In this document: positions 36,475-61,721 of the stretch, piece by piece
How positions within the stretch are numbered: position 1 is the first letter of the stretch
Layout: each line of letters opens with the position of its first letter
Made by a program: the position numbers and the translations under genes
Source of the DNA: Gemmatimonadota bacterium
GTDB lineage: Bacteria; Gemmatimonadota; Gemmatimonadetes; JACCXV01; JAHWKZ01
Length of the DNA: 64,000 nucleotides
Direction: 5' to 3'
Assembly: GCA_033722155.1 (NCBI GenBank)
Contig: JAWVZN010000003.1
Span: forward strand, 24,845-88,844
The notes under the pieces: generated by a model
The model's database searches: none
Seen by the model: only the letters and a program-made list of their open reading frames with translations
Told to the model about the DNA's origin: nothing

Positions 36475-36477
36475 CGC

Positions 36478-47816: not shown

Positions 47817-50396
47817 TCAGCTCGCCGTCGCCGCCTCCGACGGGGCCTCCCGCTCGGTCTCCGGCTCCCCGGACTCTCCCTCCGGCCCTCCACCGTCCGC
47901 CTCCGGCCCCTCCGTCAGGGCCACGTCCAGCACCTCGTCGATCGACTCCACGAACACGAACTCGAGCCCCTCGAGCAACTCCTCGTCGATCTCCTCCACG
48001 TGCTCCCGGTTGCGGTGGGGAAGCACCACCGTCCCGATCTCCGACCGTCGGGCGGCCACCAGCTTCTCCTTGATCCCCCCCACCGGCAGCACCTGGCCGG
48101 TCAGGGTGATCTCGCCGGTCATCGCCACATCCGGGCGCACCTTTCGTCCCGAGACCGCCGACGCCAGCGCGGTGGCCATGGTGGCCCCGGCGGAGGGGCC
48201 GTCCTTCGGCACCGCGCCCGCGGGGACGTGGAGGTGGATGTCAACCCCCTCGAAGAACTGCTGGTCGATCCCCAGCTCCTCAGCGTGGGAGCGAACCCAG
48301 GCGAGGGCCGCCTGCGCCGACTCCTGCATCACGTCCCCCAGCTTGCCGGTCAGGGTGAACCCCTTCTTGCCCGGCATCGTGGTCGCCTCGACGAACAGGA
48401 TGTCGCCCCCCGAGGAGGTCCACGCCAGCGCGGTCGCGACGCCCGGCCGCGCCACCCGGCTCGCGACCTCCCGGAACGCCTTGCGGGGCCCCAGGTACTC
48501 GGAGAGGTCCCCCTCGTCGACGGTGGCCTCCTCGATCTCGCCGGCGGCCACCCTCGCCGCGACCTTGCGGCACACCTTGCCGATCTCCCGCTCGAGGTTC
48601 CGGACCCCCGCCTCGCGGGTGTAGTTGGAGATGATCTTCCGCAGGGCGTCGTCGGTGATCTCGAGCCGCTCCTCGTCCAGGCCGTTCTCCTCGAGCTGGT
48701 TTCCGACCAGATACCGCTTGGCGATGAACAGCTTCTCGCGATCGGTGTAGCCGGGCAGCCGGATGATCTCCATCCGGTCCTGCAGGGCCGGGTGGATCGT
48801 CTCGAGGACGTTCGCGGTGCCGATGAACAAGACGTTGGAGAGATCCAGCGGCAGGTCGAGGTAGTGGTCGCGGAACGTGTCGTTCTGCTCGGGATCGAGG
48901 ACCTCGAGCAGGGCGCTGGAGGGGTCGCCGCGGAAGTCGGCGCCCACCTTGTCGATCTCGTCCAGCATGAAGACCGGGTTGTTCACCCCCACCCGCTTGA
49001 GCGACTGCACGATCCGGCCCGGCATGGCGCCGATGTAGGTGCGCCGGTGGCCCCGGATCTCGGCCTCGTCCCGCATCCCCCCCAGCGACATCCGGACGAA
49101 TTCCCTCCCCATCGCCCGCGCGATCGACCGCCCGAGGGACGTCTTGCCCACTCCGGGGGGGCCGACGAAGCACAGGATCGGGCCCTTCATCTCCGCCTTC
49201 AGCTTGCGCACCGCCAGGTACTCGAGGATCCGGTCCTTGATCTCCTGAAGGTCGTAGTGGTCCTCGTCGAGCACCTCGCGAGCGTGATCGAGCTCCAGCC
49301 GGTCCTCCGTCCCCCTGGTCCACGGCACCTCGCACAGCCAGTCGATGTAGTTCATGATGACCGAGTACTCGGGGCTCGCGGAGGGGACGTTCTGGAGCCG
49401 CTCCAGCTGCTCTTCGGCGGCCTCCATCACGTAGTCGGGAACCTCGGCCTCCTCGAGGCAATCGCGGAGCCGCTCGATCTCCCGCTCCTCGTCGGGGGTC
49501 TCCCCGAGCTCCTCCTTGATCGCCTTCAGCTGCTGGCGCAGGTAGTACTCGCGCTGCTTCTCCTGGATCTCCTCGTCGACCTGACTCTTGATCTCGCCGC
49601 CGATCTGGAGCACGTGGAGCTCCTGACGAAGCGCCTCGACGACGGTCATCAGCTTCTCCGCGAGGTCGTCGCTCTCGAGCACCTTCTGCTTCTCTTCGAG
49701 ATCCATCCGGACCATCGAGGCGATCAGATAGGCGAACTTCGCGGGGTCGGTGAGCTGCCGGATCGCCTGCTGCAGCTCGTCGGGCAGATAGCTGCTGGCG
49801 GCGATGACGCCCTCGGCGAGCTCGTACCCCTCCCGGAGCAGCGCCTCGACCCGGTCGGAGCGCTCCTCCTGGGGCTCGGGGAGCACCAGGATCGACGCCT
49901 CCAGGAAGGGATCGGATCGGGTGAGCTCGAGGATCCGGAACCGGCTCACCCCCTGCACCAGCAGCCGCATCCTTCCCTCCGGCTGCTTGACGAGCCGGTG
50001 GATGACCCCCACGGTGCCGACGTCGTGGATCTCCTCGCGTCCGATCCGCTCCGGGCGCTCCTCCTCCCCTGCTTCCCCCTCGCTCTCCCCCTCCTCCGTT
50101 TCGCGCCGGGCCACGACCCCGACCATCCGGGAGCCCCGCATCGCCTCGTCGACGGCGGCGATCATCCGCTCGTCGTCGGTGGACAGCGGGACGATCGTGT
50201 ACGGGTACAGCACGAGGCCCGGGACGGCGAGCAGGGGGAGGGTGTCGGGAATCGAGGAGAGGTCGACGTCCATGTCGGTGTCCTCCACGCCGGAGGCGGG
50301 ATGGGCCATCGCCGCCCCCTCCCCGGCGCCCTCGGACTCCCCGTTCCCGGGCTCGGCCGCTTCGAGGTCTTCGTCCTGGACGGGATCGTCGGACAT
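47817..50396 (-). CDS. lon: ATP-dependent Lon protease
   Basis: LON N-domain, AAA+ module (GPPGVGKTS), and proteolytic domain (PKDGPSAG). 859 aa with an acidic N-terminal extension. Confidence 0.95.
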   Translation of the reverse strand: MSDDPVQDEDLEAAEPGNGESEGAGEGAAMAHPASGVEDTDMDVDLSSIPDTLPLLAVPGLVLYPYTIVPLSTDDERMIAAVDEAMRGSRMVGVVARRETEEGESEGEAGEEERPERIGREEIHDVGTVGVIHRLVKQPEGRMRLLVQGVSRFRILELTRSDPFLEASILVLPEPQEERSDRVEALLREGYELAEGVIAASSYLPDELQQAIRQLTDPAKFAYLIASMVRMDLEEKQKVLESDDLAEKLMTVVEALRQELHVLQIGGEIKSQVDEEIQEKQREYYLRQQLKAIKEELGETPDEEREIERLRDCLEEAEVPDYVMEAAEEQLERLQNVPSASPEYSVIMNYIDWLCEVPWTRGTEDRLELDHAREVLDEDHYDLQEIKDRILEYLAVRKLKAEMKGPILCFVGPPGVGKTSLGRSIARAMGREFVRMSLGGMRDEAEIRGHRRTYIGAMPGRIVQSLKRVGVNNPVFMLDEIDKVGADFRGDPSSALLEVLDPEQNDTFRDHYLDLPLDLSNVLFIGTANVLETIHPALQDRMEIIRLPGYTDREKLFIAKRYLVGNQLEENGLDEERLEITDDALRKIISNYTREAGVRNLEREIGKVCRKVAARVAAGEIEEATVDEGDLSEYLGPRKAFREVASRVARPGVATALAWTSSGGDILFVEATTMPGKKGFTLTGKLGDVMQESAQAALAWVRSHAEELGIDQQFFEGVDIHLHVPAGAVPKDGPSAGATMATALASAVSGRKVRPDVAMTGEITLTGQVLPVGGIKEKLVAARRSEIGTVVLPHRNREHVEEIDEELLEGLEFVFVESIDEVLDVALTEGPEADGGGPEGESGEPETEREAPSEAATAS

Positions 50397-50498
50397 GGAC
50401 TCTGCCCTGCAGTGGGATTCGCGTGTCGAAAGCTTTCTACCGGCAGCGCTGACCTTCAGAATTGTGTCCCCCCGGCGAGCCGTGCGCCAGAGGATACC

Positions 50499-51941
50499 TT
50501 ACGTGCGGAACCCCACTCGCTCGGTCTCGGCCCATCCCTCCCGCCCGCGGATCGCGTCGAAGAGCGCCTTCGTCCGGACTCCCGCCAGGATCTGGCGCAA
50601 CCCGAAGTTCTCCACCACGGCGGCCCAGAAGAGGCGGGCCACGTCGCGCGCCCGCGGGTAGCGACGCACCGTGAGTTCCTCGAGAGCCAGCGAGGAGAGC
50701 GACAGCAGCAGCCCGAATCCCACCGAGACGAGAAGGAACAGCACCGCGAGGGTCGGGGCGACGAAGCCGGTGAGGAGTCCGACCCCGGTCAGCAGATAGC
50801 CGGCCAGCTCCACCGTGGGGCCGAGCGTCTCGAAGAGCAGGAAGTACGGGAAGCCGAACATGCCGACCACCCCGTAGCGCGGGTTGAGGAACATCCAGCG
50901 ATGGCGCCACAGGCTCTCCGCCTGGCCGCGGTGCCACCGGCCGCGCTGACGGCCGAGAGCGCGAAGGGTGCGCGGAGCCTCGGTCCAGCTCACCGGCTCG
51001 GGCACGAACACGATCCGGTAGGAAGGGGGACCGCCCACGCGTTCGTTGCCGTTCCGCCGCCCCCGCCACAACCGGTGGAGGCGCACGACCATCTCCATGT
51101 CCTCGCCGACCGTCTCTCGGGAGAACCCTCCCGCCTCGACGAGCGCGTCCCGACGAAACACGCTGAAGGCGCCCGAGATCAGCAGGAGAGAGTTGAGGAA
51201 GCTGTAGGCGATCCGCCCGCCCAGGAACGCCCGCAGGTACTCCACCGCCTGGAAGCTGCCGATCAGCGAGTCGGGGGCCTCCACCTCGACGACCCGCCCG
51301 TGCTCCACCCGACAGCCGTTCGCGATCCGCACGATTCCGCCGGAGGCGATCGTCCGATCCTCGTCGCCGAGGAACGGCTTCATCACGTGAAGGAGCGAAT
51401 CGGGCTCGAGGAGGGAGTCCGCGTCGATCGCGGTCACGATCTCGCCGCGCGCGACGTTGACGCCGGCGTTCAGCGCGTCGGCCTTGCCGCCGTTTTCCTT
51501 GTCGACCACCACCAGCGGGATCGGTTCGCGCGATTCGTAGATTCCGCGGATCGGCTCCGACGGGAGCTCGCCGGTGGGCATCCGGTTGGAGCGGAACAGC
51601 CGGAACTCCTCGACCAACCGGTCGAGCGTGTCGTCCCGCGAGCCGTCGTTGACGACGACCACCTCGTGGTTCGGGTAGTGGAGGGTGAGCAGCGACTTCA
51701 CGCTCTGGAGGATCACCTTCGACTCGTTGTAGGCGGGCACCACGATGGACGTCTTCGGAACGAGCGGCGATTTGAACAGGGCGTCGCGCTCGCTCCGGAG
51801 GAGCCGGCCGTGGTAGCGCTGCAGGGCGAAGAACCCCAGGACCATCATCACGAAATAGACGGCGGCGATGGCGATCATGTAGCCGACGATTCCGATCATC
51901 GCCCACCGGAAGGCGGCCGCCAGGAGGTCGAGCCACTCCAT
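50499..51941 (-). CDS. Processive family-2 glycosyltransferase (PgaC/NodC/cellulose-synthase-like polysaccharide synthase)
   Basis: N-terminal TM, VPAYNES, VVNDGSRDDT, AIDADS (DxD), GEDMEM, QRGRWHRG (QxxRW), and a C-terminal TM bundle. ATG at 51941. Confidence 0.85.
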   Translation of the reverse strand: MEWLDLLAAAFRWAMIGIVGYMIAIAAVYFVMMVLGFFALQRYHGRLLRSERDALFKSPLVPKTSIVVPAYNESKVILQSVKSLLTLHYPNHEVVVVNDGSRDDTLDRLVEEFRLFRSNRMPTGELPSEPIRGIYESREPIPLVVVDKENGGKADALNAGVNVARGEIVTAIDADSLLEPDSLLHVMKPFLGDEDRTIASGGIVRIANGCRVEHGRVVEVEAPDSLIGSFQAVEYLRAFLGGRIAYSFLNSLLLISGAFSVFRRDALVEAGGFSRETVGEDMEMVVRLHRLWRGRRNGNERVGGPPSYRIVFVPEPVSWTEAPRTLRALGRQRGRWHRGQAESLWRHRWMFLNPRYGVVGMFGFPYFLLFETLGPTVELAGYLLTGVGLLTGFVAPTLAVLFLLVSVGFGLLLSLSSLALEELTVRRYPRARDVARLFWAAVVENFGLRQILAGVRTKALFDAIRGREGWAETERVGFRT

Positions 51942-51943
51942 CG

Positions 51944-53137
51944 TCAAACCCGGGCGAGGGCGAGCCTGCCGGTGCGGAGCCGCTCGAGCGCCTCGAGAGC
52001 GGCCGAAGACGCGGTGGCGTGGTTCTCCCGGACCCGCCTCTCGAGCGCTTCGCGTCCGGCCTCGTCGAGCTCGGCGAGGGCGTAGGCGGCGCCCACCGCG
52101 ATCCGGCGATCGCGGGCGTGCAGCAGCCTTTCGAGCTCGGGGACGAGCGTCTCGAGCCCCAGCTTGCCGGCGACCCTGACGGCGGCGATCCTCACCGCGT
52201 CGCTCCGATCCGACAACCCGGTCCGCACTTCCCTCTCGGTGTCGAGGTCGACGAGGACGTACGGCAGCGAACGGAGAGCCCGGGCCCGGATTTCCGGTCG
52301 GGGGTGGCGCAGAAGAGGAGCCACCGCGGGAACCGGGAGGGACTTCTGCCACGCCTCGATCATTTCCAGAGTGACCGCCGCGCGCCGGGGATCGGAGGGA
52401 TCGAGCGCCCGGGGGATGGCCTGGCCGGCCAGGTGGCCCGCGTGCGGGCGGAGCTTCTCCACCAGCACCGCCCGCACCAGGAGCGGCTCGCGGGTCGCCA
52501 CCTCGAACACCCGCTCGATCTCGGCTATCTTCTCCGAGCGCAGCAGCGCCCGCGCCGCCTCGATGCGCACCGCGGGCTCAGGATCCCTCAGGGCGTCGCG
52601 GAGAACGTCGTCGCCCCGACCGCCGTCGAGCTGGCTCAAGCGTGAGATCGCCCGACGGCGGCGTTCCACCCAGGCCGACCGGGCCCGCCGCACCCACCGG
52701 TCCACCAGGCCGATCTCCTCGGCGAGCGACGAAAACCTCGAGCGCTCCGAGCCGCCTATCGAGGCGAGCAGGTCGTCCGCGCACCGCTCCACCACCCTCG
52801 GGGAGCGCGCCCACTCCTGCTCGATCGCGGCCCGGGCCGTCTCCACCTCCCCGCCGTCGTCCGCGGTGAGGAACGTGACCATCCGCTCGCGGACGATCGG
52901 CTCCAGCCTGCGCATCCGCCTCTCCCGCGCGCTGGCGACCAGCTTGGCGACCGACAGGCCGCCGAGCAGGAGCGCGATGGCTGCAGACTGGACCACGATG
53001 AAGGCCACCACCAGGGCCAGGACGACGGATCCGACCGTCCCCGCCAGCAGCTGCCGGTAGACGATCCAGATCGCCACGGCGTAGACGCCCACCACCACCC
53101 CGGTCTTGAGCCAGATCCCGCCTCGTCCGCGGATCAT
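51944..53137 (-). CDS. Membrane-anchored HEAT-repeat protein
   Basis: Two or three N-terminal TM helices, then repeated D/R-P-x-x-(V/I)R-x-x-A-(A/V)-x-x-L units (DPEPAVRIEAARAL, RPEIRARALRSL, SDAVRIAAVRVAGKL, DRRIAVGAAYAL). ATG in an ATGA overlap at 53134-53137. Its stop lies 2 nt from the GT2 start. Confidence 0.7.
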   Translation of the reverse strand: MIRGRGGIWLKTGVVVGVYAVAIWIVYRQLLAGTVGSVVLALVVAFIVVQSAAIALLLGGLSVAKLVASARERRMRRLEPIVRERMVTFLTADDGGEVETARAAIEQEWARSPRVVERCADDLLASIGGSERSRFSSLAEEIGLVDRWVRRARSAWVERRRRAISRLSQLDGGRGDDVLRDALRDPEPAVRIEAARALLRSEKIAEIERVFEVATREPLLVRAVLVEKLRPHAGHLAGQAIPRALDPSDPRRAAVTLEMIEAWQKSLPVPAVAPLLRHPRPEIRARALRSLPYVLVDLDTEREVRTGLSDRSDAVRIAAVRVAGKLGLETLVPELERLLHARDRRIAVGAAYALAELDEAGREALERRVRENHATASSAALEALERLRTGRLALARV

Positions 53138-54663
53138 CGGACCCGAACGGCGCGCTCGAGCCGGGCCACCAGTTCGAGCGGACTGAACGGCTTGGAGACG
53201 AAGTCGGCGGCTCCCAGCTCGAAGCCCCGCAGCACGTCGCTCTCCTGTCGGCGGGCGGTGAGCAGCACCACCGCGACGCGCCGGGTCCGCCGGTCGCGCT
53301 CCAGCGCGGCCAGCACCTCGAAGCCGTCGAGGCCGGGCAGCTGCACGTCGAGGACCATCGCCGCAGGCACGACCCGTCGGGCCAGCTCGAGCGCCGTCGG
53401 GCCGTCGTGGGCGAGATGACACGGATAACCCCGCCGGCGGAGGGAGGCGGCCACGAGAGAGGTGATCGTCTCGTCGTCGTCGGCGACCACCACCTCCGGA
53501 GCGGGCGATCCGGGGGAACGGGACGGGGCGGTGCGGCCCCTCCCCTCCCCCGTCGCCAGCGCCGCGCGGAGGAGCAGCTCCGAGTCGGTCCACGGGGCGA
53601 GCACCGCCGGGTATCCCCACCGTTCCACCACTCCCGGGAACGAGTGCGGTGGACCGACCAGGACCGTGGGTCGCTCGAGACCCGCCATCCCGGACGCTTC
53701 GAGCCACTCTTCCGCGCGCTCCGACTCCCCGACCGCGAGCAGGATCAGATCGAATCTCTCGAGGGCCTCCGAGTCCGGCCGGGCCTCCGACCAGCGGAGC
53801 GACTCGGCGCCGGCCCCGACTCCGCGAAGCGCCGCCACCGCCCGCTCCGCTTCGGGACCGTCGAATCCCACGAGGCCCGCCCGGAGGCCCTCCAGACGGG
53901 CGGCCACTCCGGGAGCGAACGCCTCCGCGGGACCGGGCGAGGCGGCCGGTCTCGCCTCCGCGAACGCGTCCCTCAGCTCCGACAGGCGCTCTCGCGCCGC
54001 CGACAGATCGCCGGCCGCCACCAGGGCCTCGAGCTCCCGCGCCAGGGCGCTGATCCTTGGATATCCCAGCGTGCCGCCCCGGCCCGCCCACCGGTGGGCC
54101 GCCCTGCGGATCGCCTTCGAGGGAGTCTCGGCATCGAACTCGTCCAACAGGTCGGGCGCCCGGCGTCGACCTTCGTCGAGGAATCGGGCGCGAAGGTCGA
54201 TCAGCACCGGGGACTCCGCGGGAGGGCCGACCCGATCGTCCAGGCAGCCGACCAGGGCCTCGAGCACCGACTCGAAGCCCGGCCGACGCGCCACGATCGC
54301 GTCGGCTCCCGCCTTCCGGGCGAGCAGCCCGTCGCTCTCCTCCTCCATGTCGTGGCTCGTGAAGAGGATCAGCGGGATCGTTGCGAGGCCGAGCTCGTCG
54401 CGGATTCGCCGGGCGAGCTCGAATCCGTCGCTTCGCGGGAGGACCACGTCCAGCAGCGCCGCGCAGGGGGGGTCGGCGGCGATCGCGCGGAGGCCGTCGC
54501 CGGCGTCGGCGGCGACGACGGGCTCGAAGCCGAGCCCCCGGAGCCTCTCCGCGAGGAGCCGGCGCTGGACCGCGCTGTCGTCGACGACCACCACCCGTCG
54601 ACCCCGGCCCGGAGTGCCGGAGGGCAGCGCGGACGCTCCCGAAAGGGCGTCGCTCTCGCTCAC
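53134..54663 (-). CDS. Multi-domain phosphorelay protein: REC - HPt-like - degenerate REC-like - REC
   Basis: N-terminal REC (VVVVDDS...LLDVVLP...), HPt-like AAHRWAGRGGTLG, a middle flavodoxin-like segment lacking the acidic pocket, and a C-terminal REC (VVVADDD...VLDVQLPGLDG...SKPF). GTG in a GTGA overlap at 54660-54663. Confidence 0.7.
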   Translation of the reverse strand: MSESDALSGASALPSGTPGRGRRVVVVDDSAVQRRLLAERLRGLGFEPVVAADAGDGLRAIAADPPCAALLDVVLPRSDGFELARRIRDELGLATIPLILFTSHDMEEESDGLLARKAGADAIVARRPGFESVLEALVGCLDDRVGPPAESPVLIDLRARFLDEGRRRAPDLLDEFDAETPSKAIRRAAHRWAGRGGTLGYPRISALARELEALVAAGDLSAARERLSELRDAFAEARPAASPGPAEAFAPGVAARLEGLRAGLVGFDGPEAERAVAALRGVGAGAESLRWSEARPDSEALERFDLILLAVGESERAEEWLEASGMAGLERPTVLVGPPHSFPGVVERWGYPAVLAPWTDSELLLRAALATGEGRGRTAPSRSPGSPAPEVVVADDDETITSLVAASLRRRGYPCHLAHDGPTALELARRVVPAAMVLDVQLPGLDGFEVLAALERDRRTRRVAVVLLTARRQESDVLRGFELGAADFVSKPFSPLELVARLERAVRVR

Positions 54664-55043
54664 CCGCGGCTTCCCGCGCCGGAGGAGCCGAGCAGCTCCT
54701 CCACCTTCCCGGCGAGCTCGAGCGGATCGAAAGGCTTGGGCACGATCCCCCGGACGTCGCTCTGCCGCAGGGCGTCGGCCCGCTCCCCCTCCGCGTTACC
54801 GGTCAGGAACACCACCGGAACATGCGTGAGGCCGTCGTCGAGGCGCATCCGCCGAAGCACCGCTTCGCCGCTCTCGTCGGGGAGGAGCACGTCGAGCAGA
54901 ACCGCGTCGGGCCGATCGCGGCGGGCCCGCTCCAGCCCCTCGGCTCCGCTCGCGGCTGTCGCCACCTCGTGTCCGGCCTTCTCCAGGGCGAAGCGTGCCA
55001 CGTGCCGGATCTCCGGATCGTCGTCCACCACGAGGACCCTCAC
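54660..55043 (-). CDS. Single-domain (CheY-like) response regulator
   Basis: VRVLVVDDDPEI...LLDVLLPDESG...PKPFDP. 127 aa. GTG in a GTGA overlap at 55040-55043. Confidence 0.8.
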   Translation of the reverse strand: MRVLVVDDDPEIRHVARFALEKAGHEVATAASGAEGLERARRDRPDAVLLDVLLPDESGEAVLRRMRLDDGLTHVPVVFLTGNAEGERADALRQSDVRGIVPKPFDPLELAGKVEELLGSSGAGSRG

Positions 55044-56587
55044 GACTTTTTCAGCAGCCGGTGGACGCGGGCCAGCAGCTCGGTCGGCGAAAAGGGCTTC
55101 ACCATGTAGTCGTCGGCGCCGAGCGAGAGGCCGCGCACCACGTCCTCCTCGCTGCCTCGCACCGTCAACACGATCACCGGGATCGAGGAGGTCTCCCGCT
55201 GCTGCCGCATCCGGTTGAGCACCTCGAAGCCGTCCATGTCGGGCAGCAGCACGTCGAGGATCACGAGCGAGAACTCGGATCCGTCCCCGTTGGATCCGAC
55301 CTCGTCGAGGACCGCTTCGCCGTCGCTGCAGTGGACGACCTCGAGTCCCTCCTGGGAGAGGCGGTGGCGGATCAGCGTGGCTACGAGGTCGTCGTCCTCT
55401 CCGATCAGCACCCGCCGCTTCGGTCGGGGAACGTCCGCGCTGTCGGAGACGACGCGGTCGCGTCCGGTGGACTTCGCCAGGTACAGGTAGTAGTCGGCGC
55501 GAGCCACCGCCTCGTCCGCCTCGTCCTCCGGCAGCACCGGCGCCACCCCCGCGCTGAAGGAGAGCTGGAACGTCTCCCCTTCCGCGACGAACTGCTCCTG
55601 GCGAAACCGGCGGCGGGCCTTGTCGAGGGCGCGCAGCGCCCCCTCGCTGTCGGTGTCGGGGAACAGCACCACGAACTCCTCCCCTCCCCAGCGCGCCACG
55701 AGATCGGATCCGCGAAGTGCGTCCTCGATCGTGGTCGCGGCACGCCGAAGCACCTCGTCCCCCATCGCGTGTCCGTGGGCGTCGTTCACCTGCTTGAAGC
55801 GGTCGAGATCGAGAAAACCGATCGAGAGGGCCTGCTCCTGTCGCCGCGCGAACGCCTGGGCCAGCCGGAAGGACTCGTGGAAGGCGGCCCGGTTCGGAAG
55901 CTCCGTGAGGGGGTCCTGCCGCGATTCCTGCGCCGACTCCCGGTAGCGCTGCAGCTTGGAGGCGACCGCGGTCGCGAACGCCTCCGGATCGAACGGCTTC
56001 TCGAAGAACTCGTCGGCGCCGAGCGCGAAGCATTCGCTCTTGGCGAGGCTGGAGGACTTCACGGTGAGCACGATGACCGGAAGCGCCGCGGTCGACGGCC
56101 GCTCCCGCAACCGCATCAGCAGGTTCCGCCCGTCGGTGTCGGGGAGGACGAGGTCCAGAACCACGAGATCGACCTCCTCCACGGCGAGGATCCGCTCGGC
56201 CTCTTCGGCCGTGCGGGCGTGGTGGATCTCGCGATTGTCGTTCCCCAGATGCCATTCGAGGATCCGGGCGATCTCGTCGTCGTCGTCGATCACCAGGAGC
56301 CCTACGCGATCCGCCTCGCTTCTGCCGGCCACCTCCCGGAGGACGTCGAGCAACCCCTCCAGCTTCACCGGCAGCTCGCTGTCGCTCGCCTCCTCCACCT
56401 CGGCGGCGGCTTCGGTGATGCGGGGGAAGCCGTAGGTGCCGCCGGAGCCGCGCAGGGAGTGGGCGACGCGCCGGATCGTGCCCCGCGCCTCCCCCCGATC
56501 CTCCACCAGGAGGGCCTCGGCAGCCGCCTCGAGGGCGTCGATCCGGGCCTCCAGCTGTTCCCGGTACCAACTCTTCAGCTCTTCCAT
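55040..56587 (-). CDS. HPt-REC-GGDEF-REC diguanylate cyclase response regulator
   Basis: HPt motif AHSLRGSGGTYG, REC (LLVIDDDD...VLDLVLPDTDG), GGDEF with an intact GGEEF and an RGSD I-site 5 aa upstream, and a second REC (VLIGEDDD...ILDVLLPDMDG...VKPF). ATG at 56587 is preferred over the TTG at 56632. Confidence 0.85.
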   Translation of the reverse strand: MEELKSWYREQLEARIDALEAAAEALLVEDRGEARGTIRRVAHSLRGSGGTYGFPRITEAAAEVEEASDSELPVKLEGLLDVLREVAGRSEADRVGLLVIDDDDEIARILEWHLGNDNREIHHARTAEEAERILAVEEVDLVVLDLVLPDTDGRNLLMRLRERPSTAALPVIVLTVKSSSLAKSECFALGADEFFEKPFDPEAFATAVASKLQRYRESAQESRQDPLTELPNRAAFHESFRLAQAFARRQEQALSIGFLDLDRFKQVNDAHGHAMGDEVLRRAATTIEDALRGSDLVARWGGEEFVVLFPDTDSEGALRALDKARRRFRQEQFVAEGETFQLSFSAGVAPVLPEDEADEAVARADYYLYLAKSTGRDRVVSDSADVPRPKRRVLIGEDDDLVATLIRHRLSQEGLEVVHCSDGEAVLDEVGSNGDGSEFSLVILDVLLPDMDGFEVLNRMRQQRETSSIPVIVLTVRGSEEDVVRGLSLGADDYMVKPFSPTELLARVHRLLKKS

Positions 56588-56701
56588 GGGATTCACGACC
56601 TCGATCGCAGAATCAAGGGGAATCGCGCGCAATCCACCCGTACGGCGCGCAGCGGGGCGCCGATCCGAGCCGGCGCGACTCCGCTCGACATCCGCGAAAC
56701 G

Positions 56702-58768
56702 TCAGCCGGGCGTGGAGAGCGCCCTCCCGGCCGCCGGATGGTCGTCTCCTTTCGATGCAAGATCGGGGCCCCCACGCGCCCTCGGCGCGAGCACCACGGA
56801 GAAGCACGTCCCCTCCCCCACCTCGCTCTCGACGGTGAGGTCGTATCCCAGCAGCCGGCACAGCGAACTCGAGATCGCCAGCCCGAGCCCGGTTCCACCG
56901 TAGGTGCGGGCGGTGCCCGTCTCCGCCTGCTCGAACGCCTCGAAGATCTTCCGGAGGCGGTCGGGAGGGATCCCGATCCCGGTGTCCTCCACCTCGATCC
57001 GCACCGGCCGCGCCTCCCCGGCGGCGACCACGCGGACCGTGATCCTTCCGCGATCGGTGAACTTCACCGCGTTGCCGATCAGGTTGATCAGGATCTGCTT
57101 CAGCTTGCCCCGGTCGGTCCGGATCGGCTCGAGGAGGCCGGGGAGCTCGGCCTTCAGCTCGAGGTCGCGATCGAGCACCGGCCCCCGGAACTGGTCGACG
57201 GTCTCCTCCACGAGCTCCTCGAGGTCGACCTCCTCGAGATCGACGCTCATCCGACCGGCCTCGATCTTCGAGAGATCCAGGATCTCGTTGATCAGGTCGA
57301 GGAGGTGGAGGCCGTTCTCCCGGATCCGTTCGAGGAACCCTCGCCCGCGCTCGTCGAGCGCGTCGCCGGCCCGTTTCAGCAGGACGTTCGCGAAGCCGAT
57401 CACCGAGTTGAGCGGCGTCCGGAGCTCGTGGCTCATGGTGGCCAGGAACTCGCTCTTCGCCCGGGTCGCCTCCTCGGCGGCCTCCTTCGCCTGCCGAAGC
57501 TCCTCCTCCGCCCGCTTGCGCGCGGTGATGTCCCGGTAGATCTCGTAGAGCGCGGTTCGGCCCCGCTCGAGGTCGATTGCGGTGCCCAGCACCGAGACGT
57601 CGATCGTCGTTCCGTCCTTGCGGCGCCGGATCGTCTCGTACCCCACGTTCTGCCCGCGGGCGACCCGGTCCTGCCACGTCCGCGCCTCGGCCCGGCGATC
57701 CTCCGGCACGATCAGCTCCTCGATCGCGGAGCCGAGGGCTTCCTCCCGCGGCCACCCGAACGTGCGCGTGAACTCGTCGTTCATCCGGGCGACCCGCCCC
57801 TCCTCGTCCAGGACGACGATCGCCTCCGGAGCGCTCTCGAAGAGCCGCTCCAGGTACGCCTTCTGCACCTCGAGCTCCTCCTGGGCCCGCTCCCGCTGGA
57901 CCACCTCGCGGGCGAGCGCGGCAGCCCCCTCCTCGGCCCGCCGGAACGTGAGGTAGACGCTGACGAGCAGCCCCACCCCGACGCACAGGTAGCTCACGAC
58001 CTTCAACACGTGGGCGGCGAGGAACAGCGCGTCGTGGGGGGCGGAAGAGAACGCCATGAACGGCGCCTCGCTCACGAAGGCGATCAGCAGCGAGACCACC
58101 AGCCAGTGGTCGAAGGCGTTGTCCCTCCAGTGGGCCTTCCACAGGTAGCCGCACAGCGCGAACAGGAACAGCCCCGCCGGAACGAGTTCCTGGGGACGGG
58201 GGAGCGCCGCCTCCGTCCACCCCCGGGACAGCGGCGCGGCCTCGATGACGATCACGGTCGCCACGGTGAGCAGGGCGGTGGTGATGTAGACCGCCCCCTC
58301 GCCCACCCGACCCTCCTGCCCCAGCCTCCGCTCCCTCCGCCAGCCGAGCCAGTTCAGGCAGAAGAACAGGGCCAGCAGCGTCCGTGAGGCGAACCAGCTC
58401 CACGCCTCGACCGCCGTCCGCTGGGCCGCCGCCCCCGCCGCGAACGGGGCGGACTCCACGAGGTGGACCCCGTCCAGGAAGGCGGCGGCGAGGAATCCCG
58501 TCCCGAGGAACAGGAAAACGTTGTTCTTCTTGCTGTAGAAGCGGACCAGGGCGAGGACGCCGAGGAACAGCGCGAGGGTGGTGGCGATCGCCTCGAGTAC
58601 CGCGTGCTCGCGCGGACCGCCCCAACCCGGGGCGCCCCGCAGCGCCACGTAGCCGACCGCGGCGGCCGCCAGCAGCGCCAGATAGGCGACCATCCGCTGG
58701 CGCTCGACGCGCGCGCCGCCCCTCCACGCGGTCGGCGTCGCCCGGAGGACCTTCTCCTCCACCCTCAT
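56702..58768 (-). CDS. Sensor histidine kinase (multi-TM sensor - PAS - HisKA - HATPase_c)
   Basis: About 7-8 TM helices, PAS (LFESAPEAIVVLDEEGRV), H-box FLATMSHELRTPLN, N-box LINLIGNAVKFT, and G-boxes DTGIGI/GGTGLGLAI. ATG in an ATGA overlap at 58765-58768. Confidence 0.85.
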   Translation of the reverse strand: MRVEEKVLRATPTAWRGGARVERQRMVAYLALLAAAAVGYVALRGAPGWGGPREHAVLEAIATTLALFLGVLALVRFYSKKNNVFLFLGTGFLAAAFLDGVHLVESAPFAAGAAAQRTAVEAWSWFASRTLLALFFCLNWLGWRRERRLGQEGRVGEGAVYITTALLTVATVIVIEAAPLSRGWTEAALPRPQELVPAGLFLFALCGYLWKAHWRDNAFDHWLVVSLLIAFVSEAPFMAFSSAPHDALFLAAHVLKVVSYLCVGVGLLVSVYLTFRRAEEGAAALAREVVQRERAQEELEVQKAYLERLFESAPEAIVVLDEEGRVARMNDEFTRTFGWPREEALGSAIEELIVPEDRRAEARTWQDRVARGQNVGYETIRRRKDGTTIDVSVLGTAIDLERGRTALYEIYRDITARKRAEEELRQAKEAAEEATRAKSEFLATMSHELRTPLNSVIGFANVLLKRAGDALDERGRGFLERIRENGLHLLDLINEILDLSKIEAGRMSVDLEEVDLEELVEETVDQFRGPVLDRDLELKAELPGLLEPIRTDRGKLKQILINLIGNAVKFTDRGRITVRVVAAGEARPVRIEVEDTGIGIPPDRLRKIFEAFEQAETGTARTYGGTGLGLAISSSLCRLLGYDLTVESEVGEGTCFSVVLAPRARGGPDLASKGDDHPAAGRALSTPG

Positions 58769-59127
58769 TCCAGCTGGGCCTCGATCACCTCGATCAGCTT
58801 CTCCTCGTCCACGATCGGCTTGCTCACGTAGCCGTCGAACCCCTTCGAGAGATACTTCTTCCGGTCGCCGGCCATGGCGTGCGCGGTGACCGCGATCACC
58901 GGAACGTCGACCAGCCGCTCGTCCTCGCGCATCCGGCGGAGCACTTCGGTTCCGTCCATCTCCGGCATCGAGATGTCGAGCAGCACGAGTTCGGGCTTCT
59001 GCCTGCGGAAGCCCTCGAGCGCGTCGGGACCCGACTCGTACTCGACGATCCGGTACCGGTCGCCGAGGATCGCCGCCACCAGGAGCCGGTTGTCGGGATT
59101 CTCCTCCACGTGGGCGATCGTCGTCAT
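58765..59127 (-). CDS. Single-domain (CheY-like) response regulator
   Basis: LLDISMPEMDG, VIAVTAHA, and SKP. 120 aa. ATG in an ATGA overlap at 59124-59127. Confidence 0.85.
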   Translation of the reverse strand: MTTIAHVEENPDNRLLVAAILGDRYRIVEYESGPDALEGFRRQKPELVLLDISMPEMDGTEVLRRMREDERLVDVPVIAVTAHAMAGDRKKYLSKGFDGYVSKPIVDEEKLIEVIEAQLE

Positions 59128-59492
59128 CCGCTTCTCCCTCGCGTCTCTCGCTCCAACCGGTCCCGGGCGGCCGCGAAGGCGTTCGCCATCTCCGCGATCT
59201 CCCGCTCCAGCGCGGCCGTCCCGGCGCCGGCGTCCCGCGCCCGCTCGGCGCCCGACTCCACCCGCTGGGCCTGCTCCTGCAGACGGACGGCGCCGACGTT
59301 GCCCGCGCTCGACTTCAGGGAGTGGGCGGCCCGCTCGAGGGTCTCGAGGTCGCCGTCGGCGACCGCGGCCCGCGCGGCGGCGATCCGGTCCTCCCCCAGC
59401 TCCGAGAACAGCGCCACCATCTTCGATGCCAGGGCCTCGCCTCCGAGACGCCGGAGCCGCTCGAGGCCGGCCGGATCCACATCCTCAGGCAC
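59124..59492 (-). CDS. Stand-alone HPt (histidine phosphotransfer) protein
   Basis: AAHSLKSSAGNVGA HPt motif in a four-helix-length 122-aa protein. Confidence 0.75.
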   Translation of the reverse strand: MPEDVDPAGLERLRRLGGEALASKMVALFSELGEDRIAAARAAVADGDLETLERAAHSLKSSAGNVGAVRLQEQAQRVESGAERARDAGAGTAALEREIAEMANAFAAARDRLERETRGRSG

Positions 59493-60069
59493 GCCCGGCG
59501 CTCCTCCACCGCCACGCCCGGCTCCCGTACGAAATGTAGGAGAGCGCCAGCATCACGCTCGCCGCGACGGTCAGGGCGGGGTACGCGGACTTCCACTGCA
59601 AGATATGGGCGAGAGTGAGCAGACCGAGGAAGAACGTCGTCAGCTTCCCCGTCCAGTCCGCGGAGAATACCACCTGCTCCCGTCGGAAGAAGAGCCACGC
59701 GCCGCCGATCAGGAGCGCGTCCCGGAGGATCACCAGCCCTACGAGCCAGATCGGGAATCCGCGGGTGGCGGCGAGGTACACGATGAGCCCCCCCAGGAGC
59801 ACCTTGTCGGCGAGCGGATCGACGACCTTGCCGCTCGGGCTGATCGCCGAGCGGCGCCGGGCGAGCCAGCCGTCGAGGAGGTCGGACAGGCCCGCTACCA
59901 CCAGCAGGACCGTCGCCCATTCGTCGCTCTTCGGGGCGGGGCTCTCGAGCAGCCACAGGATCGGCACGAGGAACACCATCCGGATCGCCGAGAGGGCGTT
60001 GGGGAGGGTCGCCCATCGGACCCCCCCCTCGACCCGCTCCGGATCCGAGGAGCCGTGCGTCGCTTTCAC
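59485..60069 (-). CDS. pgsA: CDP-alcohol phosphatidyltransferase (PgsA-like)
   Basis: DLLDGWLARR...GKVVDPLADK (the D-G-x2-A-R...G-x3-D-x3-D signature). GTG in a GTGA overlap with the recN stop at 60066-60069. Confidence 0.8.
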   Translation of the reverse strand: MKATHGSSDPERVEGGVRWATLPNALSAIRMVFLVPILWLLESPAPKSDEWATVLLVVAGLSDLLDGWLARRRSAISPSGKVVDPLADKVLLGGLIVYLAATRGFPIWLVGLVILRDALLIGGAWLFFRREQVVFSADWTGKLTTFFLGLLTLAHILQWKSAYPALTVAASVMLALSYISYGSRAWRWRSAGRA

Positions 60070-61721
60070 GCCCGCCCCGTCAGCAGCTCCTCGGCGTGAT
60101 GGCGGCTCACGTCCCGGTCGGGATCGCCGCCGAGCAGCCGGCTCACCTCCCGGACCCGGTCCTCGTCGTCGACCGAGCGGGCCGAGATCACCGTCCGCTC
60201 GTCCCGAGGCGCCTTCTCCACGACCAGGTGGCGGTCGGCCGCGGCCGCGATCTGGGCCAGGTGGGTCACCACGATCACCTGGTGGTGCTTCGCGACCGCC
60301 TTCAGCTGCGCCGCGACCCGATGGGCGATCCTCCCGCCGATCCCGGCGTCGATCTCGTCGAACACCAGGGTCGGGGTGCGGTCCGCGGCGGCAAGCGCGG
60401 ACTGCAGCGCGAGCATCACCCGGGAGAGCTCGCCTCCGGAGGCGATGCGGGAGAGGGGTCGCGGGGACTCGCCCGCGTTGGGCGCGATCCGGAACTCCAC
60501 CCGCTCCAGGCCGGCCCGGGACCACGCCCACCGCTCCCCGCCGCGGGGCACGCCCCCGGGATCGGGACGGCGGGAGAGGTCGATCTCGAAGGTGCCCTCG
60601 CCCATCCCGAGCTCGGCGAGCCGGTCGGTGACCGCCGCCTCCAGGCGATCGGCGGCGGCCTCCCGCGCGTCGGCGAGCGCGTTGGTGGCGACGGTCAGCT
60701 CGCGGAAGTGCTCCTCCCGCTCGGCGTCGAGCGAGGCCGCGCGCCTCTCGGCGGCCTCGAGCTCGGAGAGCTCCTCCCGCATGCGCCGGGCGGTCTCGAG
60801 CACCTCCTCGAGGCTCCCGCCGTGCTTGCGCCGGAGCCGAAAGAGGAGGTCGCGCCTCTCCTCCACAGCGGCCAGGCGCCCGGGGTCGAGATCCACCGCG
60901 TCGGCGTATCGCCCCAGCTCCCGGCCGACCTCCTCCAGATCGTAACGGACCGACGTCAGCCGGTCGGCCAGCGGGGCGAGGTCCGCGTCGAGCTCGGCGA
61001 GCCGTCGCAGATGGCGCTCCAGGCCCGCCAGGGCGGGCGCGACGGCGTCGTCGGCCTCGGCCAGCGCCCGGTTCAGCTCGCCGGCCAGCCTGCGCCGCTC
61101 CGTCGAGTGCCGCAGGCGCTCGGCCTCGCTCGCCAGCGACTCCTCCTCGCCGGGCTCGATCTCCGCGGCGTCGATCTCCTCGACCTGCGAGCGGAGGTAG
61201 TCGATTCTCTCGGCCCGCCGCCGCTCGGCGTCCTCCAGCTCCGCGCGCTCGGCCTCCAGCGCCGCCAGCGCCTCGGCGGCCCCGGAGACGGTCTCGGCGA
61301 TCCCCTCCGCGCCGGCGAAGGCGTCGAGCAGCTTCCGCTGCACCGCTCCCTTCACCAGCAACCGGTCCTCGTGCTGGCCGTGGAGCACCACCCGTCGCTC
61401 CCCCACCTCCCGCAGCATCCGGGCGGTCGCCATGTCGCCGTCGAGGTAGCACCGGTTGGAGCGATCGCGGCGTATCTCCCGACGCACCAGCCGCTCACCC
61501 CCGCGCGCGTCCCCGAACAGCCCCTCAACCACCGCCCGCTCGGCGCCCTCGCGGATCGCGTCCGTCGAGGCGCGCGCGCCGAGCAGCAGCGCCACCCCCT
61601 CGACCAGGATCGACTTGCCCGCCCCCGTTTCGCCGGTGAGGACGTTGAGCCCGGGTCCGAACTCCACCTCGACCTCGTCGATCAGCGCGTACTCGGCCAG
61701 CCGGAGGCGTCTGAGCGTCAT
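60066..61721 (-). CDS. recN: DNA repair protein RecN
   Basis: Walker A GETGAGKS, long coiled coil, SGGELSR signature, and VFDEIDAGIGG. ATG in an ATGA overlap at 61718-61721. Confidence 0.9.
   Translation of the reverse strand: MTLRRLRLAEYALIDEVEVEFGPGLNVLTGETGAGKSILVEGVALLLGARASTDAIREGAERAVVEGLFGDARGGERLVRREIRRDRSNRCYLDGDMATARMLREVGERRVVLHGQHEDRLLVKGAVQRKLLDAFAGAEGIAETVSGAAEALAALEAERAELEDAERRRAERIDYLRSQVEEIDAAEIEPGEEESLASEAERLRHSTERRRLAGELNRALAEADDAVAPALAGLERHLRRLAELDADLAPLADRLTSVRYDLEEVGRELGRYADAVDLDPGRLAAVEERRDLLFRLRRKHGGSLEEVLETARRMREELSELEAAERRAASLDAEREEHFRELTVATNALADAREAAADRLEAAVTDRLAELGMGEGTFEIDLSRRPDPGGVPRGGERWAWSRAGLERVEFRIAPNAGESPRPLSRIASGGELSRVMLALQSALAAADRTPTLVFDEIDAGIGGRIAHRVAAQLKAVAKHHQVIVVTHLAQIAAAADRHLVVEKAPRDERTVISARSVDDEDRVREVSRLLGGDPDRDVSRHHAEELLTGRA

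Follow-up and report, generated by a model that had tools for sequence, protein, structure and literature searches.

The closest characterised sequence relative of the synthase described here (g8) is PgaC, the inner-membrane GT2 of the Escherichia coli PgaABCD system. PgaC requires a small two-TM partner encoded next to it, PgaD; PgaA is an export porin made of TPR repeats and a β-barrel, and Pga is controlled post-translationally by c-di-GMP. To our knowledge, the characterised bacterial GT2 synthase systems of this type (Bcs, Pga, Alg, Nfr and Bgs) are all c-di-GMP-gated. BcsA of the BcsA–BcsB(–BcsC) system and the hyaluronan synthases of Chlorella virus and vertebrates have the processive GT2 fold and the D, DxD, (T/G)ED and QxxRW motifs in common with g8. 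That the synthase-dependent class can gain newly recognised systems has a precedent in NfrAB/YbcH of E. coli, a minimal c-di-GMP-controlled exopolysaccharide system of a GT2 and a TPR-barrel outer-membrane protein, in which the synthase has its own, locally acting cyclase and c-di-GMP is sensed by the C-terminal MshEN domain of NfrB (PMC8669469, PMC8669472); Nfr is c-di-GMP-gated (PMC8669469). The cryptic yaiO-yaiX-yaiP-yaiS locus of E. coli also has a YaiO-family barrel gene (TIGR04390) near a GT2 gene.

In the window (the whole stretch of DNA analysed, 64,000 nt), a GT2 gene and a TM-HEAT gene stand at the end of a run of phosphorelay genes. More than a dozen bacterial phyla share the receiver–HEAT–synthase core; our literature searches turned up neither an account of this core nor a characterised member of the HEAT–GT2 system.

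Layout of the gene cluster

The original prediction had described eight co-directional genes in a given order, and this held when the ORFs and their boundaries were checked. All lie on the minus strand, and every named domain matched Pfam above the gathering score (E from 1e-10 to 1e-50).

59124-59492, minus strand: g1, stand-alone HPt phosphotransfer protein, 122 aa
58765-59127, minus strand: g2, single-domain CheY-like receiver (REC), 120 aa
56702-58768, minus strand: g3, MASE3-PAS-HisKA-HATPase non-hybrid sensor kinase, 688 aa
56588-56701, minus strand: g3/g4 gap, 114 nt, the sole real intergenic gap
55040-56587, minus strand: g4, HPt-REC-GGDEF-REC, 515 aa
54660-55043, minus strand: g5, single-domain REC, 127 aa (123 aa with start 55031)
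53134-54663, minus strand: g6, REC-HPt-pseudoREC-REC, 509 aa
51944-53137, minus strand: g7, 2TM-HEAT protein, 397 aa
50499-51941, minus strand: g8, membrane-integrated processive GT2 synthase, 480 aa

Six of the seven junctions had been counted as tight, and for five this stood: the 4-nt overlaps g1/g2, g2/g3 (g2 being overlapped by both neighbours), g5/g6 and g6/g7 are unambiguous, and g7/g8 is a 2-nt gap. The sixth, a 4-nt GTGA overlap at g4/g5, depends on a g5 start at 55043; the public gene call places this start at 55031, which leaves an 8-nt gap. The 114-nt stretch between g3 and g4 was, as claimed, the single real gap. It was negative for terminators, sigma-70 promoters and Rfam families, and in comparison with two relatives (L001 and L002) it was unconserved except for the start codon context of g4, the start ATGGAAGAGC being kept in both. 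This gap divides g1–g3 from g4–g8. Two genes further upstream, one RecN-like (SMC_N/AAA_23) and one for a CDP-alcohol phosphatidyltransferase, continue the tight packing with overlaps of 4 and 8 nt, and close packing is not special to the eight-gene cluster. The arrangement is not due to chance: close relatives show synteny of the entire cluster, and the core is kept in different phyla.

The phosphorelay and the receivers beside the HEAT gene

The relay had been predicted to set one non-hybrid kinase against three HPt domains and at least six receivers, and a residue check of the eight products agreed: the His residues are present in each of the three HPt domains, and five receivers are fully canonical, one has K109 replaced by R and one is a pseudo-receiver. 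The HPt of g1 (Pfam Hpt, E 7.6e-15) has its phosphorylatable His in AAHSLKSS and, in NCBIfam, weakly matched TorS and ArcB at their HPt ends; an HPt also occupies this position in both L001 and L002 as well as in Marinimicrobia, Lentisphaerota and Longimicrobiales loci. g2 (Pfam Response_reg, E 6e-25) has all of the EE, D, T and K residues, and its top NCBIfam match was the receiver region of BarA. The H-box of g3 reads SHELRTPLN. The HK-REC-HPt order of the unorthodox kinases BarA, ArcB and TorS is reproduced by the separate genes g3, g2 and g1, although here one kinase stands with three HPt domains and six or seven receivers. g5 (Pfam Response_reg, E 6.8e-24) has the canonical D, D, T and K, and a single REC fills the equivalent position in Marinimicrobia and Lentisphaerota loci. 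The domains of g3 and g6 are as follows.

57974-58606, minus strand: g3 MASE3 membrane sensor (Pfam, E 2.8e-16)
57512-57853, minus strand: g3 PAS (Pfam, E 1.4e-16)
57254-57460, minus strand: g3 HisKA (Pfam, E 1.3e-20)
56789-57115, minus strand: g3 HATPase_c (Pfam, E 2.4e-28)
about 54253-54594, minus strand: g6 REC1 (Pfam Response_reg), K109 replaced by R
53950-54198, minus strand: g6 HPt (Pfam Hpt)
about 53509-53901, minus strand: g6 pseudo-receiver (hhalign probability 91.5%)
53158-53493, minus strand: g6 REC2, terminal, canonical (Pfam Response_reg)

The reading of the g6 middle domain as a pseudo-receiver was confirmed by aligning the family of this region with a REC profile (114 columns, E 8.6e-7), and the acidic pair, T87 and K109 are all missing. 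The g6 architecture also lies directly upstream of HEAT–GT2 in Acidobacteriota.

The comparison took in 76 non-redundant related loci, spread over about 15 phyla, of which 48 had long enough flanks; 88 sources were scanned. In 75 of the 76 the gene immediately upstream of GT2 was TM-HEAT, and in the 80 loci that allowed placement of both, the distance from HEAT stop to estimated GT2 start was always 60 nt or less (median −7). A gene ending in REC lay directly upstream of HEAT–GT2 in 65 of the 76 loci (an adjacent REC gene was absent from 11), and at least one REC was nearby in 46 of the 48 long-flank loci, so that linkage to the relay is kept well beyond close relatives. HPt domains (30/48) and kinases (24/48) were found in fewer of these loci, and in about three loci only was a REC gene directly downstream of GT2. 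No natural REC–HEAT or HEAT–GT2 fusion was seen among the related loci.

Two receivers in the window resemble those beside the HEAT gene. g4-REC2 scored 150 bits on a profile of HEAT-adjacent receivers compared with 135 on a profile of all other receivers (+15), and g6-REC2 scored 140 compared with 119.5 (+20), a 15–20 bit signal that could partly reflect shared ancestry instead of a shared docking function. On the HEAT-adjacent profile, lower scores were obtained for the remaining four receivers of the window. As judged by profile score, g4-REC2 and g6-REC2 are members of the receiver subfamily adjoining the HEAT gene across phyla.

The synthase, its HEAT partner and export

about 50907-51764, minus strand: g8 GT-A domain (Pfam Glycos_transf_2, Glyco_tranf_2_3, Glyco_trans_2_3)
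50934-50948, minus strand: g8 QRGRW, the QxxRW motif
about 52943-53131, minus strand: g7 TM helices, two, N-terminal (AF2 model helices 3-31, 38-91)
51947-52855, minus strand: g7 HEAT solenoid (Pfam HEAT_2, E 1.9e-12; all-α in the AF2 model)

The assignment of g8 as a QxxRW-type GT2 synthase was upheld by its motifs (NDGSxDD, DADS, GED and QRGRW) and by fold. D99, D173xD175, G279-E280-D281 and Q332xxRW336 are invariant in the family, which has 43–74% identity across phyla. g8 has a single TM helix at the N-terminus and three or four at the C-terminal end. Its AF2 model (pLDDT 79) gave as top Foldseek matches the Chlorella virus hyaluronan synthase (8snc, TM-score 0.66), BcsA (9b8v, 0.57) and chitin synthases, whereas sequence identity to BcsA and the hyaluronan synthases is only 16–19%. 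Unlike BcsA, g8 has no PilZ domain, no BcsB-like partner and fewer TM helices (about 4–5); it also lacks the MshEN domain of NfrB, with whose GT domains it is barely alignable (E 7e-4 over 93 aa), and NfrAB has neither a HEAT partner nor a phosphorelay. YaiP is a different GT2, with 30% identity to g8 over the N-terminal GT-A half only, and its locus has no HEAT partner or relay.

One explanation is that the locus is a divergent PNAG system of the Pga/Ica type and mechanistically nothing new, g8 being a PgaC orthologue that makes poly-β-1,6-GlcNAc, with g7 in place of PgaD and YaiO in place of PgaA. Indeed PgaC_IcaA was the top NCBIfam model for g8 (E 9e-39), g8 and E. coli PgaC share 27% identity over 365 columns (E 3e-30), and TPR-YaiO proteins of the relatives gave weak matches to the PgaA TPR region. 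However, the model score was 133 bits against a cutoff of 422, two conserved inserts of the g8 family (about residues 113–142 and 205–225) are missing from PgaC, and the top structural match was a hyaluronan synthase rather than a PNAG synthase. No PgaB-type deacetylase was found in the 76 neighbourhoods, where other accessory proteins recur instead: a TM-sulfatase-TPR protein and two families that match nothing in Pfam, NCBIfam or PDB. We thus regard a PNAG system as improbable; the claim that no named exopolysaccharide system is matched is supported.

The partner likewise differs from PgaD, which has 137 aa, in joining a HEAT solenoid to two TM helices. Basic residues follow TM2 of g7, and the solenoid (AF2 model pLDDT 94.4) is predicted to be cytoplasmic. 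Foldseek returned generic matches only (alphaRep, ARM, importin and PP2A-A), none of which indicates a function.

The original prediction had also noted the lack of any recognisable PgaA/B/D, BcsB/C, Alg44 or PilZ partner. This stood for the window, where no YaiO, TPR or other porin is beside g8 and no PilZ domain was found, but relatives have a barrel of the same YaiO family as E. coli YaiO, not PgaA (20 of the 48 long-flank loci; 38 of the 88 sources). It is often fused to TPR repeats and in some loci to GT2, and none was found in the six Actinomycetota and two Bacilli loci (monoderm lineages), a distribution that supports a secreted polymer. The (TPR-)YaiO barrel probably plays the PgaA/BcsC role. 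No porin lies beside the synthase in the window, and outer-membrane export in the source organism would presumably use an unlinked one.

Could g8 instead be a non-exporter, making a membrane glycolipid or a periplasmic or cell-bound glycan tied to the CDP-alcohol phosphatidyltransferase, with the relay tuning envelope composition? The missing porin gene, the 8-nt overlap of the phosphatidyltransferase gene with g1, weak Pfam Glyco_transf_21 matches and the monoderm members are in its favour. Yet the phosphatidyltransferase linkage is limited to close relatives, many diderm loci carry a linked barrel, and QxxRW, GED and a hyaluronan synthase/BcsA fold match spanning the TM region point to a polymer-translocating synthase, which makes a non-exporting g8 very improbable.

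The c-di-GMP layer and the proposed switch

56345-56581, minus strand: g4 HPt (Pfam Hpt, E 8e-10)
about 55955-56299, minus strand: g4 REC1 (Pfam Response_reg, two g4 stretches, E 8e-50)
55454-55918, minus strand: g4 GGDEF (Pfam, E 2e-41), GGEEF active site and RGSD I-site
55064-55411, minus strand: g4 REC2 (the second of these Response_reg stretches)

The cyclase motif of g4 is, from its sequence, intact. g4 is like the PleD/CelR-type cyclases in its GGEEF and RxxD motifs and scored 287 bits on the NCBIfam PleD model (under the cutoff of 474), but has an additional C-terminal receiver; we found no description of its HPt-REC-GGDEF-REC arrangement in the literature.

The real switch might then be c-di-GMP itself, the relay activating g4 via REC1 and c-di-GMP binding GT2/TM-HEAT directly, as in PgaC–PgaD, while the HEAT-adjacent receivers are only relay intermediates or phosphate sinks. 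The PleD-model score, the intact active site and RxxD I-site of g4 and of 16 linked cyclases, the invariant Arg-rich C-terminal tail of the GT2 and the c-di-GMP gating of the characterised systems all favour this. Against it, a GGDEF protein was near HEAT–GT2 in 21 of the 48 long-flank loci and was not detected in the other 27, nor in the Bacteroidota (9), Balneolota (4) and Alphaproteobacteria (4) loci, and about 12 of 30 linked GGDEF domains (about 40%) are degenerate, lacking the I-site and retaining the terminal REC. A c-di-GMP receptor motif was looked for and none was found; Pfam and NCBIfam gave no PilZ, MshEN or GIL domain among the cluster products, and no GT2 or HEAT alignment column co-varied with an active cyclase. 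We therefore consider a c-di-GMP switch rather unlikely. Because GGDEF is present in fewer than half of the long-flank loci and often degenerate, the universal link appears from gene content to be the receiver domain, the conserved regulator that sets the locus apart from Pga, and c-di-GMP an optional, lineage-specific layer.

We favour, with somewhat better than even confidence, a single functional module in which a His-Asp phosphorelay switches a synthase-dependent exopolysaccharide machine through docking of a phosphorylated terminal receiver on HEAT. The predicted relay with c-di-GMP and/or phosphorylation output controlling GT2 and TM-HEAT is supported by the REC–HEAT–GT2 linkage, the intact motifs and the receiver-subfamily signal. 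Against the favoured module stand the 114-nt gap between g3 and g4, the absence of natural fusions, of a c-di-GMP receptor motif, of alignment columns tracking an active cyclase and of a porin gene beside g8, the 11 loci with no adjacent REC gene, and the part that common ancestry may have in the receiver signal. The membrane kinase g3 (MASE3-PAS) would sense the signal and pass phosphate to g2 (REC) and g1 (HPt), the three together forming a split BarA/ArcB-type unorthodox kinase, and onward to the receivers of g4, g5 and g6, g6 carrying a REC-HPt-(pseudoREC)-REC relay of its own. The decisive step would be phosphorylation of g6-REC2 and g4-REC2, the two terminal receivers, which would bind the cytoplasmic HEAT solenoid of g7 as a docking platform and so activate or assemble the synthase. 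g7 would be an obligatory partner of g8, its two TM helices packed against the synthase like PgaD beside PgaC, where they may complete the g8 channel. g8 would be the inner-membrane enzyme that polymerises a UDP-sugar and threads the chain through the membrane, and its product is probably a polysaccharide, perhaps a HexNAc polymer. With REC1 phosphorylated, g4 would also make c-di-GMP, which may act locally on the complex, because g4 may be anchored to the HEAT protein by its terminal REC. The slot upstream of HEAT is occupied by a stand-alone single-domain REC in many loci of Bacteroidota, Balneolota and Acidobacteriota; single-domain receivers act through protein–protein contact.

Gene cluster and predicted phosphorelay

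ORF mapping of the window (G+C ~71%; nearest named relatives, Gemmatimonadota MAG proteins) recovered eight minus-strand ORFs in 50499–59492, g1 to g8, in exactly the order and with exactly the boundaries of the original prediction, and the domains proposed for all eight products were borne out by a Pfam search. No NCBIfam equivalog-level match was obtained for any of the eight.

Pfam domains of the cluster products
g1: HPt
g2: REC (receiver domain)
g3: MASE3-PAS-HisKA-HATPase_c (kinase)
g4: HPt-REC-GGDEF-REC
g5: REC
g6: REC-HPt-x-REC (x, middle region)
g7: HEAT_2
g8: Glycos_transf_2 / Glyco_tranf_2_3 / Glyco_trans_2_3

Six of the seven junctions had been described as 4-nt overlaps or a 2-nt gap. 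The 4-nt overlaps at g1/g2, g2/g3, g5/g6 and g6/g7 and the 2-nt gap at g7/g8 stand, and g4/g5 depends on the start chosen, being a 4-nt overlap when g5 starts at the GTG at 55043; the public gene call places this start at 55031. The single 114-nt gap was located at g3/g4, the start of g4 being backed by ATGGAAGAGC, which is conserved in two relatives. The gap itself showed no conservation in the comparison with relatives, no sigma-70 promoter was found in it or in the cluster, and no Rfam match (E ≤ 1) was returned for 50200–61600, which covers both. Five terminator-like matches were no more than shuffles give, and none of the five lay at a gene end. A RecN-like SMC_N/AAA_23 gene overlaps a CDP-alcohol phosphatidyltransferase gene by 4 nt, and the latter overlaps g1 by 8 nt; this synteny (window 59485–61452 and upstream; L007, 221–2818) is common to the related loci L001 and L002. 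Because the tight packing runs on upstream of g1, overlaps alone do not delimit the module and, given these overlaps and the synteny, the transcription unit may start upstream of the cluster.

The predicted count of three HPt modules and at least six receivers was upheld by a residue check. All three HPt domains retain the His (motifs HSLKS, HSLRG and HRWAG), and five receivers are canonical, namely g2, g5, the first and terminal receivers of g4 (R1 and R2) and the terminal receiver of g6 (R2). In g6-R1, K109 is replaced by Arg. The middle region of g6 has neither the acidic pair nor T87 or K109; the family to which it belongs still aligns to a REC profile (hhalign 91.5%, E 8.6e-7), and it is therefore taken as a pseudo-receiver. 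With the g3 H-box SHELRTP, the HisKA His, receiver residues and HPt His of the cluster are those expected of a His-Asp-His-Asp phosphorelay, which it is predicted to encode. NCBIfam matched g2 to the receiver region of BarA and g1 to the HPt region of TorS/ArcB. Together, g3, g2 and g1 would be the equivalent of a split unorthodox kinase, with phosphate passing from g3 to g2 to g1 and then to g4, g5 and g6, the last of which would hold its own D1-H2-D2 relay.

The predicted synthase, its HEAT partner and their conservation

Residues D99, D173xD175, G279-E280-D281 and Q332-R-G-R-W336 of g8 were invariant among 18 homologues, and by these motifs g8 is predicted to be a processive membrane-integrated GT2 synthase (BcsA/HAS/CHS/PgaC class). 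The AF2 model, with a pLDDT of only 79, predicts the fold of the same class, TM and interface helices included. Its best Foldseek match in the PDB was the Chlorella virus hyaluronan synthase 8snc (E 1e-14, TM 0.66, 485 columns), followed by BcsA and chitin synthases, and the processive-synthase match spans nearly the full length of g8. Two conserved inserts (~residues 113–142 and 205–225) are specific to the GT2 family of g8, and the C-terminus lies ~20 residues past the last TM helix.

Among characterised proteins, E. coli PgaC comes nearest to g8 in sequence (27% identity, E 3e-30), which raises the reading of a divergent PNAG system. On the NCBIfam PgaC/IcaA model (TIGR03937), g8 scored 133.5 bits in two stretches against a cutoff of 422.3, and no gene for PgaD, PgaB (deacetylase/hydrolase) or PgaA (porin) is present in the window. 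ORF clustering of 76 related neighbourhoods gave no recurrent PgaB-type deacetylase, and we regard a PNAG system as quite improbable. Against the Bcs cellulose synthase (TIGR03030 / PRK11498), g8 scored 53.7 bits with a cutoff of 699 and is without PilZ and BcsB. A relationship to NfrB was rejected, as BLASTP (E 7e-4) covered 93 N-terminal residues only and g8 has no C-terminal MshEN. The synthase had been predicted to lack a PgaA/B/D, BcsB or PilZ partner and to match no named EPS synthase system; we found no such partner among the window genes (Pga) or the eight products (BcsB, PilZ), and g8 falls outside PgaC, Bcs and NfrB alike.

In the highly confident AF2 model of g7 (pLDDT 94.4), a pair of TM helices at the N-terminus leads into an all-helical solenoid, which the basic residues after TM2 would place in the cytoplasm. 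Foldseek indicated no function for g7, its matches being confined to alphaRep, armadillo, importin and PP2A-A solenoids of a generic kind (designed or eukaryotic), and no NCBIfam family describes it. The putative HEAT co-subunit is novel within the synthase-dependent EPS class. A profile search for the partner returned 947 clusters at 50% identity (E ≤ 1e-30), mostly full-length (~330–440 aa) with a few giant generic HEAT-repeat proteins, and no natural REC-HEAT or HEAT-GT2 fusion was seen among the related loci and HEAT-profile matches.

For comparison we used six loci obtained by exact protein look-ups and 80 loci from species-representative genomes. Domains were mapped by jackhmmer on six-frame ORFs with the window's own domains as seeds, and neighbourhood ORFs were clustered after masking known domains, as opposite-strand shadow ORFs of conserved genes dominated the unmasked clustering. 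The GT2 family has at least 7,900 clusters at 90% identity (E ≤ 1e-10), with 43–74% identity across phyla. In 75 of 76 non-redundant loci, the GT2 gene is immediately preceded by a TM-HEAT gene of the same orientation, and the HEAT stop is ≤60 nt from the estimated GT2 start in all 80 of 80 loci (median −7). In 65/76 non-redundant loci, the gene immediately preceding HEAT, or preceding a YaiO gene that intervenes, ends in REC. In the 48 loci whose flanks reach 8 kb or more upstream and 5 kb or more downstream, REC was found in 46, HPt in 30, a kinase in 24, GGDEF in 21 and a YaiO-family barrel in 20. The linkage of relay genes to HEAT-GT2 is thus conserved in relatives and, since adjacency holds across phyla, it can be effectively excluded that they lie together by chance. 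xREC, TM-HEAT and GT2 form the conserved unit.

The module has members in soil, marine and thermophilic lineages. Taxa with the module include Gemmatimonadota, Acidobacteriota, Bacteroidota, Balneolota, Rhodothermota, Ignavibacteriota, Marinimicrobia, Actinomycetota, Bacillota (Anoxybacillus, Rossellomorea), Alphaproteobacteria, Lentisphaerota, Elusimicrobiota, Fibrobacterota, Abditibacteriota and Sericytochromatia. It occurs in cultivable Anoxybacillus, Rossellomorea and Gracilimonas, and in MAGs assigned to Salinibacter, Ignavibacterium and Brevundimonas. The order HPt / REC / HK / HPt-REC-GGDEF-REC / REC / HEAT / GT2 is seen again in Marinimicrobia and Lentisphaerota; in Longimicrobiales loci the HPt-to-GT2 order is the same except that the single REC gene is missing, and the form REC-HPt-pseudoREC-REC / HEAT / GT2 recurs in Acidobacteriota; the window joins the Marinimicrobia/Lentisphaerota order to the Acidobacteriota form. 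The module is large, ancient and widespread, and apparently uncharacterised: within an incomplete coverage of the literature, neither a HEAT-GT2 system nor the REC-GGDEF-REC architecture was found described.

Proposed receiver docking and c-di-GMP in synthase control

To our knowledge, the characterised synthase-dependent EPS systems are few (cellulose, PNAG, alginate, Pel and Nfr) and all are described as c-di-GMP-gated. These systems underlie most knowledge of biofilm matrix production. The GGDEF domain of g4 (RGSD-LVARW-GGEEF; Pfam E 2e-41) combines a GGEEF site, an RxxD I-site five residues upstream and REC input, the features of an active diguanylate cyclase, which g4 is predicted to be; it is not a PleD orthologue, because it reached 287 bits on the PleD equivalog model, whose cutoff is 474. 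As the window cyclase is intact, production of c-di-GMP is predicted, possibly made locally as in NfrB-DgcJ, a precedent for local c-di-GMP action (PMC8669469).

A direct and main gate by c-di-GMP is nevertheless unlikely in our judgement. No GGDEF domain was detected in nine Bacteroidota, four Balneolota and four Alphaproteobacteria loci. Approximately 12 of 30 cluster-linked GGDEF domains are degenerate (variants including GGAEF, GGDDF, GGGDY and DGDAF), having lost both GGDEF and RxxD with the receivers on either side retained, the HEAT-side terminal REC among them; REC-GGDEF-REC loci with this trait are L020, L022, L029–L034, L039, L051, L078, L060 and L024. The degenerate domain seems to be kept as a scaffold rather than an enzyme. 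A group-specific conservation scan of active-cyclase loci against the rest found no GT2/HEAT column tracking the active cyclase, and none of the eight products has a c-di-GMP-binding PilZ, MshEN or GIL domain. Because no GGDEF was detected in the loci of these three groups, linked GGDEF domains are often degenerate and no column tracks the cyclase, c-di-GMP looks like an add-on layer.

Evidence for control through the receiver came from the REC slot, which is filled by a stand-alone single-domain receiver in many lineages. Single-domain receivers work by partner binding. When a profile of HEAT-adjacent receivers from distant loci was compared with a profile of all other receivers, g6-R2 and g4-R2 were favoured by 20 and 15 bits respectively, and the other four window receivers were lower on the HEAT-adjacent profile. 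On this signal, together with the single-domain REC slot, we propose receiver–HEAT docking as the likeliest mechanism, in which a phosphorylated terminal receiver would dock on the cytoplasmic solenoid, whose two TM helices would couple to the synthase as those of PgaD do with PgaC. We tentatively suggest, with somewhat less than even confidence, that REC/TM-HEAT/GT2(+YaiO) is an unrecognised family of EPS machines in more than 12 phyla, whose primary gate would be REC~P on a membrane-anchored HEAT solenoid forming part of the synthase, and not c-di-GMP, with cyclases recruited secondarily via the same receiver–HEAT contact. The idea of a relay and a c-di-GMP cyclase wired to a GT2 synthase with a TM-HEAT partner is supported and is refined here to receiver-centred control. 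Compared with known synthase-dependent EPS systems, the module would differ in its novel co-subunit, in the YaiO-type porin of relatives and in this control.

If such gating is true, the phosphorelay would act on polymer synthesis directly, without transcription or a second messenger, which would be a new mode of processive glycosyltransferase control and would open matrix production to genetic work in little-studied phyla, Gemmatimonadota, Acidobacteriota and Marinimicrobia among them.

Exporter, accessory families and other loci

The YaiO barrels of relatives, often TPR-fused, scored 75 and 49 bits on TIGR04390 (cutoff 32), and their genes lie upstream of GT2, downstream of it or fused to it. 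None was present in six Actinomycetota and two Bacilli loci, which fits expectation for an outer-membrane export component. L001 is the relative nearest to the window among those on long contigs, with 69% identity in GT2, and there a 265-aa YaiO barrel gene (11494–12291) overlaps the GT2 stop and is followed by lon. This gene is missing from the window and from L002, where the GT2–lon spacing is only ~100–130 nt, so that the porin gene looks recently lost. jackhmmer found no YaiO or other porin anywhere in the window. A synthase-dependent EPS secretion system in general comprises a GT2 or GT4 synthase, an inner-membrane co-subunit, a TPR/beta-barrel outer-membrane exporter and post-translational signalling control. 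Of these parts the window holds synthase, co-subunit and signalling genes, and an exporter is seen beside GT2 only in relatives (YaiO, 20/48 long-flank loci). That g8 makes a glycolipid or a periplasmic glycan we regard as very improbable, and we favour an EPS as its probable product. GT2 is fused to a C-terminal YaiO barrel (~745–785 aa) in L006 (10001–12352; Thermoanaerobaculia) and in the related proteins P0012, P0054 and P0077. The topology is puzzling, and such fusions point either to a periplasmic location of the GT2 C-terminus or to processing of the protein. The E. coli yaiO-yaiP-yaiS locus was rejected as orthologous, the YaiP match being only to the GT-A N-terminal half (30%) and the barrels unalignable pairwise.

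Two accessory families were found beside HEAT-GT2 in Actinomycetota, Bacilli, some Gemmatimonadota, Sericytochromatia, Marinimicrobia, Lentisphaerota and Bacteroidota, with examples, among others, as follows.

Accessory-family examples in related loci
L035: 11426–13660
L086: 11296–14541
L067: 11341–14625
L023: 4843–7683
L082: 4759–6966

The first is a ~700-aa module with a W-x-W-(D/E)-x-P-x-YHE-like motif at its end, the second a ~370-aa module with an N-terminal TM helix, and some members carry extra N-terminal TPR repeats. Neither family matched Pfam or NCBIfam, and the L035 member, the one queried, had no PDB sequence match. They may act in modification or export, in the periplasm or outside the cell. 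If the receiver–HEAT model is true, these two families and the very large 'HEAT repeat domain-containing protein' family would acquire a function. Bacteroidota, Balneolota and Rhodothermota loci (L027, 4803–7265; L047, 1659–4265; also L026, L037, L062, L070 and L077) encode in addition a Sulfatase-domain protein that has several TM helices and ends in TPR repeats. Its architecture is of the LtaS/EptA/BcsG type, an analogy that hints that in these lineages phosphoethanolamine or phosphoglycerol decorates the polymer.

Elsewhere in the window lie a 7TM-receptor HD-hydrolase (7TMR-HDED/7TM-7TMR_HD/HD; 15304–17721, minus strand) and a secreted beta-helix protein that carries Big and PKD domains (22329–24545, plus strand), and no link of either to the cluster was found. 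A separate Wzx/Wzy-type polysaccharide locus (28855–42647, minus strand) lies ~8 kb downstream of GT2, and the window therefore holds at least two polysaccharide pathways.

Genes of the Wzx/Wzy-type locus
40179–42647, minus: Wzz/GNVR co-polymerase
39545–40222, minus: Wza-like Poly_export/SLBB
37520–39541, minus: Bac_transf initiating transferase
36481–37731, minus: epimerase
35704–36477, minus: WecG/TagA glycosyltransferase
28855–30546, minus: GT4
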